A DNA stretch of 63,952 nucleotides, filler included, from Reclinomonas americana ATCC 50394 (GCA_048213135.1; 13 parts of 13 records of this genome joined end to end with filler, not necessarily neighbours in it); one strand, 5' to 3'. Shown: positions 978 through 58,626, numbered from the whole stretch's first letter. Numbers and translations are program-made. Notes: generated by a model not told the origin, from the sequence alone.

Positions 978-3486
978 TCATTGACCAGCGGCCATCGCCA
1001 TGCGGCGAAGAATAATGTCGGCAAAGTACTGCTCCACAGACACTCGCGTCAGTTGCAGACGGCAACCATCGCAACACTCACGGATACACACGCACCTGCG
1101 AGTCATCAAACACGCCACGTGGTTCGACATCAATCACTACATCGTCCAGCACGGCTTCCGGCACCAATGACTCGCCAGTTTCTGTCCATGAAAACGTATT
1201 CAGCAAATGACACACACAAGCTTGCAAACACGTTCCTCACCAATGTCACGTGCGTCAATGATGCCCTTCCGCGCGTTGTCGTCAAAGAACATTTCCAGCG
1301 TGTCGTGCGACGAGGTGCGATCCAGCAGGAACAACTTGCCGGCGTAGTGCGCCTGATTGTGGGAGTTCCACCTGTGCAGGAAAGTGAGACATAGAGTAAA
1401 AGAACTCACGGCTGCGAGGATCGCGTACCAAAAGAAATAATCCTGCACCCCCAGCGCTCGGTGCTCATCGGCCAAACGCCGCAGTGTGCCATGAATGTCG
1501 GCCAGCCCAACAGCCACCTCACGCACAGCCGGGTGCGCCCGCACGGCTGCCACAAATGTCTCCGCACTCAGCTCCACCGCCGGTGAGTTGCTGGCCTCCA
1601 GCAGCTTGGCGAACAGTGCCTCCACGTTGGCCGACGGGAACAAGCCGTGCAGTCCGACTGCCAGCAGATCCACATGCTGACCGCCAACGTCTCCCCGAAA
1701 CATGCAGCCGCGTGCGGCCGGGTGAACCTGTGTCACCAGAATCAACAATTCTGATCACAAGACGCACGCAAGGCGGAGGCCACGCAACCCTGTAATCCAC
1801 CGAGCCATTGGTGCCGTCGAGCCGCGCATCGCCACCAAACGCCCCCTCACAGAAGCGATTGAATTCCTCCTCGATCTGCAACATGTCAGCAGTTGATACT
1901 CCGTGCACACTCTGCACGCGAGACGCAACATCGGGCAAGTCGGAACCGAAGGTGCGGAACACGACACTAAAGTGCGTCTCCGGCAGCGACGCCATCTTCA
2001 CAATGCTGTTGCAGAAGCTCGGCACGAGAATGCTGGTCGACCCCGGCGCTGCAGCACCCATAAACAACAACAACGAGAGACGAGCACACGACATGTCGCT
2101 GTCACACCTGCAGTCGGCGGGCAGTACGTCTCGACAAACCGCTGCACCGNNNNNNNNNNNNNNNNNNNNNNNNNNNNNNNNNNNNNNNNNNNNTTAATTA
2201 ATTAANNNNNNNNNNNNNNNNNNNNNNNNNNNNNNNNNNNNNNNNNNNNGGATTCCGCTGTGGGAGGGGGAAGGGGGAAGGGAGGGGTGAGAAGGAAAGG
2301 AGCGAAGGGTGAGAAGGAGGGAAGGGGGGAAGGTGAAGGAGGGAAGGGGGGAAGGTGAAGGAGGGAAGGAAGAGGCGAGGAAGAAAGGGACGGGAAGGGG
2401 GGAGTGTGAAGCAAGGAGGGCAAGGGAGAAAGGGGAAGGGTGAGAGGGGAAGGAAGGGAAGGTGAGAAGGGCGAACTGGAGACAGAAAGAAGGACAGAAG
2501 GAGGAATGAGAATGGCGAAAGGGGAAGGGTGACAAGGAAGGAGGGCGAGAAGGAAAGGGTGAGAGTGGGGAATGGTGAGGGAGGAAGGAGAAGGGAAGGG
2601 GGAGAGTGAAGCAAGGAGGGAAGGAAGGGAAGGGTGAGAAGGAAGGGTTCAGAGTGGGGAACAGGAGGGAAAAGAGACAAGGGAAGAAAGGAAACGAGCG
2701 GAGACAAGAGGAGAAGGGAGGAGAGAGAAGGAAGGGGGAAGGGTGAGAAGGAAGGGAGAGTGAGAAGGAAAGGGTGAGAGTGAGGGAGGAAGGGAGGGTT
2801 GAGGTGGCAAAGAGGAAAGAGAAAGAAGGGGAGAAGAAGAGATGAAAAGGGGTAAGGGGAAGGAGTCAAGGGAAGGAAGGGAGGGTGAGAAGGAAGGGGT
2901 GAGAGTGGGGAATGGTGACGGAGGAGGGAGGAAGGAAGGGGGAGAGTGAAGCAAGGAGGGAAGGAAGGCAGGGGTGAGAAGGAAGGGTTAAGAGTGGGGA
3001 ACAGGAGGGAAAGAGAGACAAGGGAAGAAAGGAAACGAGGGGAGACAAGAGGAGAAGGGAGGAGAGAGAAGGAAGGGGTGAGAGTGGGGAATGGTGAGGA
3101 AGGGAGGTTGAGGTGGCAAAGAGAGGAGGAAGAGTGGAAGGATGAGGAATGGTGAATAAGGAAGGGAGGGTGAGTGGGGAGGGGAAGGGAGACAATGAGA
3201 GTTGAGAGGAAAAGGGGAGAGAATGCATGATCATGCATGATCACTCATCTCTCCTCTCTCTCTCTCTACTTTCCCTTCCCCTCCAAGTGTGTGTGTGCAT
3301 GTTTACATAAGCACCAGTGACATGCGCAGGCATGGCAAAGCACGAGGCGGGCGGAGGTTGCGCGACAACTCCATAGATGTTTTCGGCGATAATCGCACGA
3401 AACACGTCCTCCACAGACTTGCCACCGGCCTTGTCAGAAAAGATAATCGTGCGATTCACATCAAAGTGCGCCACAACTCGCCTCAT
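978..3486 (-). CDS. Conserved hypothetical protein, HAD-superfamily-like (HFDVNRTII...FRTFGxD...FFDDN motifs); multi-exon, interrupted by an assembly gap
   Basis: ATG at 3486 (MRRVVAHFDVNRTIIFSD). Spliced exons give FSVVFRTFGSDLPD|IEEEFNRFCEG, QDYFFW|WNSH..AGKLFLLD, MFFDDNARKGIIDARD, EPRGVFDDSQ|YFADII, then TGA at 978-980. Introns are GT-AG and frame-consistent. Family assignment is from recalled motifs. Confidence 0.7.
2150..2249. other. Artificial gap spacer N-TTAATTAATTAA-N (stops in all six frames). Also at 3738, 18923, 23008, 25217, 32453, 34113, 43626, 45332, 55142, 58437 and 62793
   Basis: The same 100-nt cassette occurs 12 times. Genes continue in order and strand across several of them, so these are scaffold gaps. 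Confidence 0.97.
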
Positions 3487-3951
3487 GCTCACTCACTAAT
3501 CAAAAAAAGCAAAAAACACAAGGGACAAGGACAACGAAGGTACCAATGTGTGTCAATCATTTGTACAATGATACAAGTGTGCGAACCAAAAACGGGGATT
3601 ATGGTAAGAGGCCCTTGCCGGTCAGCATGTGGGCCAGTGCCTCGTAGACACGCAGCTGTCCGTCGCCATCCAGCGCGCCCAGCTTTAGTATGTAGTAATC
3701 GGCCTTGGTGCTGTGCTTGAGGAAGGTGTCGTGGTAGNNNNNNNNNNNNNNNNNNNNNNNNNNNNNNNNNNNNNNNNNNNNTTAATTAATTAANNNNNNN
3801 NNNNNNNNNNNNNNNNNNNNNNNNNNNNNNNNNNNNNTCCTCTCTTCCCTCTCTTCTCCTCTCTTCTCCTCTCGTCTCCTCTCTTCCCCCTCTTCTCCTC
3901 TCTTCCCCTATCTCTCCCTCCCTTTTGCTTCCTCACTCTTTTTTGTCGCAG

Positions 3952-56800: not shown

Positions 56801-58626
56801 GGAGAAGAGAGGAGAAGAGAGGAGAAGAGAGGAGAAGAGAGGAGAAGAGAGGAGAAGAGAGGAGAAGAGAGGAGAAGGGAGGAGAAGGGAGGAGAAGGGA
56901 GGGAAAGAGATGAGAAGAGATGAGAAGAGATGAGAAGAGATGAGAAGAGATGAGAAGAGATGAGAAGAGAGGACAAGAGAGGGAGAAGAGAGAGGAGAAG
57001 ATTGAGGAAAAGAGAGGAAAAGAGAGGAGAATAGGGGAGAAGAGGGGAGAAGAGATGAGAGGAAATGAGAGGAGGTAAGAAGAGAAAAAGAGAAAAGAGA
57101 AGAAGAGGAAACAAGAGGAACAAGAGACGAGAGGAGAGAATAGAAGAGATAAGAAGAGAGGAGAAAGGAGGAGAAGGGAGGAGAAGATATGAGAGGAAAT
57201 GGGACAGGAGAGAAGAGAAAAGAACACAGAGAAGAAGAGGAGACACGAGGGAACAAGAGACGAGAGGAGAGAATGGAAGAGAGGTGAAGAGAGGAGGAAT
57301 GGGATGAAACAAGAAGAAGAAGAGGAGACAAGAAGAGACGAGAAGAGAAGAGATGCGGCAAAAGAAAGAAACAAGAGAGCAGATGAGAGGGATAATCGGA
57401 AAAGCTGGAAGGTCAACAGAGAACGCAAAAACATCTCGTCACTCGCAACAGAGTGATGTGGATGATCGGAAAGAAGCACGATCGTCGGCGCAACTCTTGA
57501 AGCAGCGGCAGCAGCAGAAGCTGCAGCCGTTGCCGCCGCTGCCGCTGCCGAAGCAGCCTGTGTGTCATGATGGCTGGCGCGACGACGCTGAGCCAGCTCA
57601 ATCATCTCCTGCGCCAGCGCATCAACGTCGACAGTGTTGGGCGCGGATGCCGCTGCGGGTGCTGCAGATGGCGCACGGTGAATGTGTCGTGCGAATTCAC
57701 CGTCGCCGTGTGGCGACAGCGGTGCCATGCGCGGTCGGACGGCTTGGATTTCCGGTGCGCTGGGACGGCGGGCTTGCGGTGGCTGCAAGGGAGTGAGTCA
57801 TCGGTGGGCGAGAGGGTGGATAGCACGCACGCAACAGCAGGCATGGGGGCGGCATCTTCATCTGTGTGGGCGTGAGTCGGGGACAGGTCGGTGTGTGAGT
57901 GGTGTCGTCGGAGAGTGCCGACGTTGGTGGCGACAATAAAGGGTCCGTCGGCGGCCTGCGTAGGGGGAAGGGATAGTGGGCATGTGAATTGAGCGTTGGG
58001 GAGAAGGGGAAGTGATGACGAACTGCGGTAGAAATGTCGGGGAGGCGAGGGACGACGTGGGTTCGGCGGGTGGGGTCGTCTGCAGGAGGGAAGGGAAGGT
58101 GAGGGAGGGATGTCAAGGAATACAGCGTTGTTGGAGAAAACGCAACAGGAGACCACTTGCACGGAGCCGAGTGGTCGTGGGGCTGGTCGAGTGGTCCACT
58201 CGACGCCCTCTCCAGCGCTCTGAGATGACGTGGAACGTGGGAATGCGGCAAAGAGGGACAACGAGGAAAGCAAGAGGAAGGGAAGGCGAGAGGAGGCTCG
58301 TTCGCTCTCTCACTCACTGCTCTTCTCCCACGCTCACTGCTCGTCTCACTCGCTCACTGCTCGTCTCCCTCGCTCACTGCTCGTTTCGCAAGCTCACTGC
58401 TCGTCTCTCTCTCTCTCTCTCTCTCTTTCTCTCTCTNNNNNNNNNNNNNNNNNNNNNNNNNNNNNNNNNNNNNNNNNNNNTTAATTAATTAANNNNNNNN
58501 NNNNNNNNNNNNNNNNNNNNNNNNNNNNNNNNNNNNCTACCGTTCACTCGATCGAACCACACGGACACGTTGTACGCATACACGGACCAACACAGCATCG
58601 AGAGAAAAACGCTTGATTGTCGCCAT
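38893..58626 (-). CDS. Very large protein: disordered N-terminus, many SDS22-like LRR blocks with LRR caps, then a multipass membrane domain; more than 30 exons; both ends tentative
   Basis: LRR exons (LQRLDLSHNRI, LETLLLRGNKL, YRxxxxxxLPxLxxLDG caps) splice in frame through 44485 and ~44327 into TM exons (EIFIGFFQ|ILAILL..ITWP, LFLITITYLPIC, LLYVVGIPVFF, YLYSPYE..YF). Four assembly gaps fall inside. Confidence 0.72.
43905..44070. repeat. Intronic 13-bp tandem repeat (CTCACTGCGTTCC)n
   Basis: About 12 near-perfect units. Confidence 0.9.
52937..53019 (-). other. U12-type (minor spliceosome) AT-AC intron, 83 nt
   Basis: 5' end ATATCCTTT. Branch site CCCCTTAAC (52958-52950) lies ~14 nt from the 3' end, which is TTAC. 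Removal gives in-frame ..FLQAS-G-MVVWRPELV.. (phase 1). Confidence 0.88.

Follow-up and report, generated by a model that had tools for sequence, protein, structure and literature searches.

Does the intron-rich eukaryote Reclinomonas americana ATCC 50394 use a second type of 5′ splice site, GTTGCG(T), behind exons whose final base is not G, and if so, what reads it? A first-pass annotation of the window (the whole stretch of DNA analysed, 63,952 nt) had listed 30 such donors. The sample is a single 64-kb window with paralogous repeat genes. A sequence beginning GTT is found on the expected strand at all 30 coordinates, as GTTGCG in 26 cases and as GTTACG, GTTGAG, GTTTCG and GTTCCG in one case each. 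Just two of the 30 have G at −1, in agreement with the statement that 28 follow A, C or T, and the described move of the conserved G to +6, usually with T at +7, is borne out (+6 G in 30/30, +7 T in 23/30), with C at +5 in 29/30. GTTGCGT corresponds to the local ordinary donor G|GTGCGT with its register moved by one base, consistent with its description as an ordinary donor plus one T.

The hexamer GTTGCG occurs 70 times in the window, compared with a mean of 36.46 in shuffled sequences (sd 6.17, maximum 56; 70 or more in 0 of 100 shuffles), and the surplus of about 33 agrees with the number of donors. Inside predicted gene spans 46 copies are sense and 11 antisense, while for the 59 remaining orderings of these letters the split is 947 to 754 (difference from GTTGCG, p = 1.2e-4). 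Predicted sense exons contain 19 copies, so the hexamer alone is insufficient as a donor; exonic copies in ankyrin genes, at 10853 and 14367, are in-frame and conserved between paralogues.

Intron junctions were modelled from sequence by homology, repeat register, open frames and a gene finder. The spliced protein of a short-chain dehydrogenase (SDR) gene on the plus strand aligns without gaps to 30 homologues at all four of its GTTGCG junctions (4035, 4130, 4313 and 4952) and, by this alignment, the four are fixed to the base. They begin a 60 nt phase 2 intron (gac|GTTGCGT, 4035..4094), predicted also by every gene-finder run; a 63 nt phase 1 intron (aca|GTTGCGC, 4130..4192) and a 91 nt phase 1 intron (act|GTTGCGC, 4952..5042), both recovered by the EM finder and the donor-blind run; and a 534 nt phase 1 intron (att|GTTGCGT, 4313..4846). 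Read directly from the sequence, the junction codon of the 534 nt intron, T|AC, specifies the catalytic Tyr of YxxxK, and TAC is impossible with any other boundary.

Repeat proteins encoded on the minus strand provide a second source of evidence. Within RCC1-repeat sequence, a 57 nt intron with the variant donor cag|GTTCCGT (25854..25910) preserves the repeat register (ALT-ED-RQLFSWG, cf. ALT-DD-GYVYTWG) and is flanked by ORFs that match Pfam RCC1. At a 61 nt phase 2 intron (cac|GTTGCGC, 28758..28818) the donor coincides exactly with the end of the Pfam RCC1 match, at profile position 20, and the repeat after the intron begins 32 residues into the following exon; the spliced repeat is 51 aa, and that formed at an ordinary donor taken for comparison (ctg|GTGCGTA, 28880..28940) is 52 aa. 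A 65 nt intron (aat|GTTGCGC, 26523..26587) is called by the EM finder, and its repeat support is weaker because the unit spanning the junction is 59 aa (hand count). Where the RCC1-repeat gene region encodes a coiled coil, a 141 nt intron (cga|GTTGCGT, 23992..24132) was predicted by the EM finder and the donor-blind run.

In a leucine-rich-repeat gene, splicing at 47224, 47020 and 46572 leaves one continuous open frame. The first of these introns (57 nt, aga|GTTGCGT, 47168..47224) was also called by the EM finder and the donor-blind run; at the second (346 nt, cga|GTTGCGT, 46675..47020) the gene finder took a weak acceptor at 46960 that leads into a stop; and the third (60 nt, gac|GTTGCGT, 46513..46572), which has a second GTTGCG 11 nt inside, was missed by the gene finder. 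A 67 nt phase 1 intron of the same gene (aat|GTTGCGT, 47335..47401) has flanking ORFs and the acceptor TTGTGCGTGCAG|; its joint to the frame was worked by hand, with acceptor 47335, outside the translated chain. A second leucine-rich-repeat gene carries a 51 nt intron (gac|GTTGCGT, 50574..50624) predicted by the EM finder and the donor-blind run, and a 1149 nt intron called by the EM finder (tgc|GTTGCGT, 49305..50453) keeps a 22-residue repeat spacing when spliced (hand count). With four junctions given by homology and about seven more by open frames and the periodicity of the RCC1 and leucine-rich repeats, the frame-restoring role of these donors is supported and, judged from such models, GTTGCG(T) sites are real starts of GT-AG, U2-type introns.

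Elsewhere on the plus strand, the EM finder placed a 61 nt intron in a membrane-protein-like gene (gct|GTTGCGT, 33164..33224) and, together with the donor-blind run, a 62 nt intron (ctc|GTTGCGT, 33379..33440); frame analysis indicates a 63 nt intron at the variant cga|GTTGAGT (33686..33748), with 93 open codons before it, a stop three codons inside and 121 open codons once spliced. On the minus strand, the EM finder gave introns of 65 nt (tcc|GTTGCGT, 41824..41888) and 60 nt (aac|GTTGCGT, 44595..44654), and both the EM finder and the donor-blind run gave three of 61 nt: caa|GTTGCGT (43124..43184), ggt|GTTGCGT (44425..44485) and agg|GTTGCGT (1728..1788). The last counts among the two listed donors with a preceding G, and is supported by frame logic only because its downstream exon has no homologue. 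Two predicted minus-strand introns were absent from the earlier list, a 60 nt variant seen by the EM finder only (gga|GTTTCGT, 23658..23717) and a 126 nt intron seen by the gene finder only (aat|GTTGCGC, 61329..61454).

The other listed donors, all on the minus strand, are candidates. A 54 nt in-frame intron (gat|GTTGCGT, 1876..1929) has an acceptor, and read-through is likewise open; no convincing acceptor was found for att|GTTGCGC (6998..7003); introns from tca|GTTGCGT (23355..23360) and the variant caa|GTTTCGT (45806..45811) enter the gaps at 23008-23107 and 45332-45431; and the variant cca|GTTACGC (24721..24726) may begin a 62 nt intron that needs a putative small exon. The donor tct|GTTGCGA (57444..57449) and candidate introns of 53 nt (gct|GTTGCGT, 57783..57835) and 67 nt (cct|GTTGCGT, 58080..58146, with a strong acceptor) lie where all frames are open. 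No close relatives of the proteins of the window were found in the databases searched.

When every GT was scored equally in a donor-blind EM gene finder, GTTGCG was the commonest donor, at 13 of 71 introns versus 49 of 2792 GT sites (p = 3.4e-10), an enrichment of about ten-fold. A mixture donor model begun from flat priors yielded a component of weight 0.35 with the consensus GT+TGCGT; among its 99 predicted introns, 20 start with exact GTTGCG and 24 are of the shifted type (+3 T, +6 G). GTTGCG outnumbers every other single donor type in the window, and introns that begin with it make up between about one fifth and one third of all, as against the usual GT(G/A)NG. The annotated figure of about 30 in about 95 donors is in the same range as these estimates, but the exact count was not reproduced; the EM finder recovered 19 of the 30 listed sites and missed 11, and its donor-blind version found 13. 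Exact GTTGCG introns use all three phases (8/6/6) and both strands, as had been noted, and occur in more than the six genes originally counted.

If the shifted donor belongs to exons without a final G, then the −1 base should differ between donor types, and in all three intron sets it does so significantly, although −1 was absent from every model that produced them. Among the 99 mixture-model introns the shifted type has 2 G and 22 non-G, versus 25 and 11 for the +5G type (p = 3e-6); the counts are 1/10 versus 10/2 in 29 of the introns selected more strictly (p = 6e-4) and 2/13 versus 18/6 in the donor-blind run (p = 2.4e-4). Relative to the 30% G of exons, G is depleted before the listed sites (2/30, p = 0.002). 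GTTGCG donors stand almost only behind exons lacking a terminal G, and for such exons the tally is 22 shifted to 11 +5G forms. An example of the latter is the ordinary-register donor att|GTGCGTC of a CAP gene (63024..63080, plus strand), where the spliced C-terminus has no gap against P0123 at the junction; the same gene has the ordinary donor ttg|GTGAGTC (63202..63260, plus strand) in its spliced sequence. The shifted class is uniform (+4 G 21/24, +5 C 23/24, +7 T 18/24), while the ordinary +5G class is loose at +4 (T13/A12/C10/G1). The two classes also differ in the base that precedes the heptamer (ordinary −2, A13/C2/G6/T4; shifted −1, A7/C8/G2/T7; chi-square p = 0.04), so the exon side of the donor is not simply shifted.

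Could the pattern be partly an artefact of mis-traced boundaries, of unexpressed or decaying copies, or of some other cause of GTTGCG enrichment? The gene models are noisy, as 39 of the 99 predicted introns fit neither consensus and many of these are probably wrong; 8–11 of the listed sites lack confirmation, and the exonic copies point the same way. Such an origin is nevertheless improbable, given the SDR junctions fixed by homologues, catalytic residue included, the enrichment that persists when the finder is blind to donors, the 46:11 strand bias and a −1 association that was never modelled.

Beyond the donor, the two classes are alike. Median intron length is 61 nt for shifted and 60.5 nt for ordinary introns, a CTCAC-like branch motif is present in 8/12 shifted and 6/15 ordinary short introns, and a pyrimidine tract and CAG end are common to shifted and other introns. 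A U12-like nature of the GTTGCG introns was rejected on this match in branch-like motif, pyrimidine tract, 3′ end and length. The same features leave only a very remote chance that these introns belong to a distinct minor-spliceosome-like system equipped with snRNAs of its own, analogous to the U12-type expansion of Physarum, and the 5′ signal differs from the RTATCCTT of U12-type introns. The resemblance lies in a second, uniform 5′ signal that does not need the exon G and stands beside looser major-type donors, and a very large second class of introns does exist in one lineage, according to the available portion of bioRxiv 10.1101/2020.10.12.336362. A uniform donor and a uniform length of about 61 nt might equally be expected of a mobile intron (introner) copied together with its own donor. 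This is extremely improbable: when the interiors of the 99 introns were compared all against all by BLASTN, 12 pairs emerged, none linking two GTTGCG introns and all involving ankyrin-paralogue introns or low-complexity runs; the length mode is shared by ordinary introns; and no inverted copy of the donor was found at acceptor ends.

The trade-off between −1 G and intron consensus is not new, being a known property of two-class, or 'seesaw', 5′ splice sites (PMC11732430, in the part available). As in that system, an exon-end G goes with loose intron positions, the lack of G with the full intron consensus, and the two avoid one another; where that system has GURAG, the sequence here is GUUGCG(U), which is one base longer, carries U at +3 in place of the purine, and has C at +5 and G at +6. 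Atypical GTGCGT(G) donors are recorded for Mamiellophyceae, in Ostreococcus (PMC2483917) and as AG|GTGCGT in Micromonas (PMC3879977), and possible snRNA changes matching them were raised by Irimia and Roy; the consulted sections of these two papers report no GTTGCG class. AG|GTGCGT is likewise present among the ordinary donors of the window, and its TGCGT core recurs in the shifted type, but the branch motif is CTCAC-like and not CTGAC. No published description of a GTTGCG donor class was found in the literature, and we read the class as a variant of the known two-class system that is itself undescribed in the literature found.

Shifted U1 registers at human 5′ splice sites were reportedly described by Roca and Krainer in 2009. 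The likeness is close in that GU is followed by an extra U, the conserved G moves from +5 to +6, and intron G+1 replaces exon G−1 in the helix while cleavage is still at GU. The class found here is, in contrast, nearly invariant and tied to non-G exon ends, and the canonical U1 5′ end is predicted to pair with it unstably. In human, shifted and bulged registers, including the bulge +2/+3 register, are proven but account for about 1.5% of sites, with canonical U1 as reader (Tan et al. 2016, PMC4856993, available text), compared with about 18–30% of donors here. Canonical U1 reading GUUGCGU in a shifted or one-nucleotide-bulged register, made common in this lineage, would account for the shared TGCGT and the one-base move, and green algae with GTGCGT donors exist (PMC2483917 and PMC3879977, in the sections consulted). 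It is, on balance, unlikely. In nearest-neighbour duplex models, which ignore pseudouridines, proteins, U6 and U5, the canonical 5′ end pairs with C|GUUGCGU at +0.5 kcal/mol in its best register and with unshifted C|GUGCGU at −1.4, so that the added T brings no gain. Because the modelled pairing is worse than unshifted, a shifted or bulged ordinary U1 fails to explain the extra-T preference of non-G exons, and the proposal that such a register is the default of this lineage is not upheld. The near-invariant +5 C would face U or pseudouridine in every register, and a −1 G, which is in fact depleted, would contribute one more pair in the bulged register.

With GC at positions 5 and 6 of the U1 5′ end, the models gave −9.3 for unshifted and −6.2 for shifted donors; a further A at position 8 made the shifted donor the better (−10.5 versus −6.3), the sole such case. 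The modelling thus favours a re-coded, U1-like complement over the canonical 5′ end, whatever the register. One snRNA alone would not fit all donors, since the doubly changed end is predicted to pair poorly with AG|GUGAGU (−3.3) and AG|GUUUGU (−2.4). A search of the window for snRNA genes found none. Variant U1/U6 or altered proteins, as first suggested, are the direction to which the data point. A possible but doubtful reading places recognition later than U1, at the U6 ACAGAGA box and U5 loop 1 with the extra U accommodated, or gives it to a changed U1 snRNP protein or auxiliary factor (U1C, LUC7-like or SNRNP27K-like). No single U1 model fits every donor type, and in the two-class view U6, rather than U1, is responsible for intron-anchored donors and U5 for AG donors (PMC11732430, PMC9803359 and PMC11842720, in the parts available). 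Against a protein, a near-invariant 7-base signal is more typical of RNA–RNA pairing. The canonical ACAGA box would meet only U+7, G+6 and U+3 of the heptamer and leave the invariant G+4 and C+5 unpaired.

The best explanation, held tentatively and at somewhat less than even chances, is that GTTGCG donors are the intron-anchored arm of a two-class donor system, with the heptamer read by a re-coded U1 or U1-like snRNA. Exons ending in (A)G would tolerate loose intron starts (GTGAGT, GTGCGT, GTGTGT, GTTTGT), whereas exons without the terminal G would require that the intron itself supply the full signal, which in this lineage would be the heptamer G-U-UGCGU, read by base pairing. Intron G+1 would then occupy the place of exon G−1 in AG|GUGCGU, so that both donor types would have G·N·UGCGU in common, with cleavage before the first GU. 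Because the canonical U1 5′ end cannot, in the models, hold the heptamer, the reader would most likely be U1 or a U1-like snRNA whose 5′ end has changed so as to be complementary to GC at two central positions and to have A for C opposite +2. We know of no precedent for a change at U1 position 8. This re-coded U1, which we purely infer, could accompany or replace ordinary U1. The GTTGCG class behind non-G exon ends suggests that intron starts are recognised in an unusual way in this organism.

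The hexamer GTTGCG occurs 70 times in the window, compared with 36.5 ± 6.2 copies in dinucleotide-preserving shuffles, none of 100 of which reached 70, and the surplus, about 33 copies, is close to the number of donors claimed for it. Its copies lie in the sense and antisense orientation in a ratio of 46:11, whereas the 59 remaining permutations of these letters give 947:754 (p = 1.2e-4). The first-pass annotation had proposed GTTGCG, with a few variants, as a second type of 5′ splice site at 30 positions, and the motif was found on the expected strand at every one of them. These sites carry G at −1 (the last exon base) in only 2 of 30 cases, fewer than expected from the 30% G content of exons (p = 0.002), with C at +5 in 29, G at +6 in all 30 and T at +7 in 23. 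Eighteen of the 70 hexamers are donors in both the first-pass annotation and our gene finder, two are donors for the finder only and eight for the annotation only; the rest fall in predicted sense exons (19), sense introns (2), antisense (10) or outside genes (11).

Several copies away from the listed sites were also observed. In-frame GTTGCGTT (Val-Ala) is present at the same conserved position in the long open exons of two ankyrin paralogues (10848–10853 and 14362–14367, minus strand), where the motif either is not spliced or serves as an alternative donor. Two more copies of GTTGCGT lie on the minus strand at the edges of predicted exons: the one at 42629–42634 is 16 nt away from a poor donor that was predicted at 42618, and the one at 61644–61649 is close to where a predicted gene ends (61612). 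Both may be real donors missed by the annotation and by the gene models.

The window is eukaryotic nuclear DNA of 63,952 bases with about 55% G+C, made up of 13 contigs joined by 100-nt linkers in which N runs surround a six-frame stop motif. The twelve linkers (2150–2249, 3738–3837 and 10 more) are identical, each consisting of 44 N, the 12-nt stop motif and 44 N. The order of the contigs looks like real scaffolding, since gene strand and gene family continue across several linkers. The recognisable genes are a short-chain dehydrogenase (SDR) gene (3952–5326, plus strand), four ankyrin paralogues (10–20 kb, minus strand), an RCC1-repeat gene (about 23–30 kb, minus strand), several leucine-rich-repeat genes (36–55 kb), an EGF/BNR-repeat ORF (58709–60748, minus strand) and, at the right end, the C-terminus of CAP, an adenylate-cyclase-associated protein. 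The EGF/BNR-repeat gene is one ORF of 680 codons, in which BNR/Asp-box (sortilin-like) repeats come after some ten teneurin-like EGF repeats. The ankyrin-core paralogues form a tandem array (10131–20385, minus strand; ORFs 10131–12908, 14248–16587, 17491–18921 and 19024–20385), and their long 5′ introns are homologous at 82–87% identity and retain ordinary tgag/GTG(C/T)GT donors (a slash marks the exon-intron boundary). Long purine- or pyrimidine-rich low-complexity arrays of GGAAGG- or CCTTCC-like units occupy introns and intergenic DNA (2250–3240, 4560–4840, 35200–36100, 48900–50200, 51000–52100 and others) and give rise to false ORFs of 400–700 codons.

No close relative of the window proteins was found in the databases searched with the SDR, ankyrin, CAP and exon 1410–1727 queries. 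The best match to the SDR exon was 64% identical, the matches coming from metagenome or transcriptome sources, and the CAP ORF had a single match (51%). Among 5.8 billion proteins, the 759-aa ankyrin ORF gave two distant matches confined to ankyrin repeats, and the array genes had no relatives beyond such repeats; a protein atlas search returned only generic ankyrin clusters. Exon 1410–1727 had no match among 1.84 billion representatives and no meaningful match in a PDB search. Pfam scans of 266 further ORFs (120 + 146) detected only ankyrin, RCC1, LRR and CAP domains, together with a single K-box match that was weak (0.00067) and fell short of the cut-off.

The clearest evidence for individual junctions comes from the SDR gene, all four introns of which begin with GTTGCG (4035/4094, 4130/4192, 4313/4846 and 4952/5042). 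The spliced protein aligns without gaps at all four junctions to 30 homologues picked from 120 listed matches. The codon formed at the third junction (T/AC) encodes the catalytic tyrosine of the YxxxK motif, and because no alternative boundary yields TAC, cleavage one base later (G/TT...) is excluded, as it would destroy this codon. A second GTTGCG at 4040 was ruled out as the donor by the frameshift it would cause. In the RCC1 gene, the Pfam match in the exon before donor 28818 ends precisely where the donor begins, at profile position 20, and the next repeat begins 32 residues into the following exon; splicing across 28818 (GTTGCG) and 28940 (GTGCGT) gives repeats of 51–52 residues. The junctions at 25910 (GTTCCG) and 25685 (GTTTGC) preserve the ALT-xx-Gxxxx[WC]G register. 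Donors 47224, 47020 and 46572 produce a single uninterrupted frame in a leucine-rich-repeat gene, which donor 47401 joins via a 67-nt intron pieced together manually from the listed acceptors. As a reference, the CAP gene has three ordinary junctions that are gap-free against homologue P0123, one of them an unshifted T/GTGCGT.

The listed donors had been described as restoring the reading frame. Removal of a GT...AG intron does restore an open frame at all four SDR junctions, where homology agrees, in the leucine-rich-repeat gene and at the 19 of 30 listed sites recovered by the gene finder, while the other 11 were not recovered. Putative introns from the listed donors 23360 and 45811 run into assembly gaps, and all frames are open around 57449, 57835 and 58146. 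No convincing acceptor was found for donor 7003; donor 1929 has a candidate 54-nt in-frame intron, read-through being likewise open, and 24726 requires a small putative exon.

Since codon bias is weak and low-complexity ORFs are abundant in the window, introns were predicted with a frame-aware dynamic-programming gene finder trained by EM; its first two versions were discarded as too noisy. In a donor-blind run all GT dinucleotides scored alike, and learning was confined to the acceptor matrix, the coding model, intron length and the composition of introns past their first 8 nt. GTTGCG nonetheless started 13 of the 71 predicted introns, vs 49 of the 2792 GT sites in the sense spans of its gene models (binomial p = 3.4e-10). 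When the finder was given three donor components with flat starting priors (the mixture run), one component, with a weight of 0.35, converged on GT+TGCGT, and 20 of 99 introns began with GTTGCG, in phases 8/6/6. Intron lengths showed a sharp mode near 60–63 nt (median 63), with many of exactly 60–61 nt and a tail to about 1150 nt. Of these predicted introns 39 fall outside both donor types, and many of them are probably wrong.

Donors were classed as shifted (+3T, +6G, +5 not G) or ordinary (+5G), and the −1 base was absent from every model. The proposal that GTTGCG follows almost exclusively exons ending in bases other than G was borne out: among the 99 predicted introns, G at −1 was present in 2 of 24 shifted donors (2 G, 22 non-G) vs 25 of 36 ordinary donors (25 G, 11 non-G; Fisher p = 3e-6). 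The G to non-G counts were 1/10 and 10/2 in a strict set of 29 introns (45–150 nt, good acceptors, exons at least 45 nt long; p = 6e-4), and 2/13 and 18/6 in the donor-blind run (p = 2.4e-4). Seen from the exon side, non-G ends took the shifted form 22 times and +5G forms 11 times. That the pattern is an artefact is improbable given its appearance in the donor-blind run and at homology-supported junctions; it is strong, a specialist in splicing would find it surprising, and it comes from gene models in one window.

The 24 shifted donors, which have T at +3 by definition, have G at +4 in 21 cases and C at +5 in 23, and the GUUGCG(U) class varies far less than the ordinary donors do. Shifting the heptamer G·N·UGCGU of the local AG/GUGCGU into the intron by one base gives GUUGCG(U). 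The exon bases preceding the heptamer differ between the classes by more than a simple shift (p = 0.04), a difference that none of the models here accounts for. A further donor subtype, G/GTTTG(T/C), always follows exon-end G and has T at +3 and +4 while keeping G at +5 (minus strand; 8627–8694, 24931–24997, 25622–25685, 25999–26454, 14277–14331 and 17660–17736).

Apart from their starts, the two types of intron are much alike. Short introns have median lengths of 61 nt (shifted) and 60.5 nt (ordinary), and pyrimidine tracts and CAG ends are common to both. A CTCAC-like branch motif occurs in 8 of 12 shifted and 6 of 15 ordinary short introns, CTCAC being the commonest 5-mer, and the U2-type branch-like pattern YTNAY lies within the last 50 nt of 12 of 12 and 12 of 15, respectively. 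U12-type introns have RTATCCTT at the 5′ end and a TCCTTAAC-like branch site near the 3′ end, with no pyrimidine tract. Neither signal was present in any of the 12 shifted-type introns inspected, pyrimidine tracts were present, and a U12 type was rejected for the class. A second spliceosome serving the GTTGCG introns is accordingly a far-fetched explanation: although the distinct start would suit it, there is no U12-type signal, and branch motif, pyrimidine tract, CAG end and length are the same in both classes. Introners, as copies of one mobile intron, would share their sequence, but a BLASTN comparison of 99 intron interiors gave 12 pairs, all between ankyrin-paralogue introns or low-complexity sequences, and none joined two GTTGCG introns. 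With no mutual similarity beyond the splice signals, this origin was rejected and is given almost no credence. Judged by these signals, the GTTGCG introns appear to belong to the ordinary U2 type despite their unusual start, and they look neither like introners nor like a separate system.

How such donors might be read was considered by modelling duplexes with the U1 5′ end (nearest-neighbour models, kcal/mol, with U replacing pseudouridine). The geometry of GUUGCG(U) is that of the human shifted register; shifted and bulged registers together make up about 1.5% of human sites (PMC4856993). Counted by hand, canonical U1 makes more pairs with these donors in the shifted than in the normal register, yet the best modelled duplex of C/GUUGCGU has an energy of +0.5, i.e., no stable helix, vs −1.4 for C/GUGCGU and −12.2 for AG/GUGAGU. 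A bulged register would gain a pair from G at −1, yet this base is depleted at the listed sites. On these models a canonical U1 5′ end would hardly explain GUUGCGU donors, and its reading them in a shifted or bulged register is quite unlikely. With GC at U1 positions 5 and 6, the energies become −6.2 for C/GUUGCGU and −9.3 for C/GUGCGU; with A at position 8 as well, they are −10.5 and −6.3, and AG/GUGAGU (−3.3) and AG/GUUUGU (−2.4) then pair poorly. Because the shifted form is favoured only by this doubly changed 5′ end, which also pairs poorly with these two AG/GU donors, we tentatively suggest, at somewhat less than an even chance, that a non-canonical 5′ end of U1 or a U1-like snRNA, complementary to the heptamer, reads it. 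Such an snRNA would stand beside whatever reads the AG/GU class. The window itself contains no snRNA match at the gathering score, and none of 18 weak matches at E ≤ 5 is to a spliceosomal snRNA.

A review ascribes the AG//GUNNN class to U5 loop 1 and NN//GURAG to the U6 ACAGA box; that donors trade G at the exon end against a complete consensus in the intron is a known two-class or seesaw property (PMC11732430). The same anticorrelation holds here in both the 99-intron set and the donor-blind run, with GTTGCG(T) rather than GURAG as the intron-anchored consensus. Reading of the heptamer by U6/U5, which would fit this division of labour, or by a protein is unlikely. The unusual part is the form of the intron-anchored class, the exon-end trade-off itself being known. 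GTGCGT(G) donors are reported for Ostreococcus (PMC2483917) and Micromonas (PMC3879977), and matching snRNA changes for GTGCGT-type donors were already considered by Irimia and Roy. Our searches found no publication on GTTGCG/GUUGCG as a donor class, although a genome paper could show the pattern merely as a logo, and for U1 sites shifted by one nucleotide the matches concerned human sites only.

A more specific version of the non-canonical U1 reading, possible but doubtful, is that the 5′ end of this lineage's U1, or of an extra U1-like snRNA, co-evolved with the introns, making GUUGCGU its cognate donor; intron G+1 would then pair where exon G−1 normally does. Few RNA signals of eukaryotes are as conserved as the intron start (GURAGU, G being at +5) and the U1 5′ end. 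If, in one lineage, between a fifth and a third of the donors have U+3, C+5 and G+6, in a rule-like manner after non-G exons, nature would have provided an experiment on how the choice of cleavage site is divided among U1, U6 and U5. The pattern would bear on whether U1 or U5/U6 sets the two donor classes and would show the evolvability of the U1 5′ end, and gene finders trained on ordinary donors would mis-annotate a large share of this organism's introns. A co-evolved U1, if true, would mean that the U1/5′ splice-site helix and its register had been re-coded genome-wide, the first known case in a major-type spliceosome, with two modes of donor recognition feeding one catalytic machinery.
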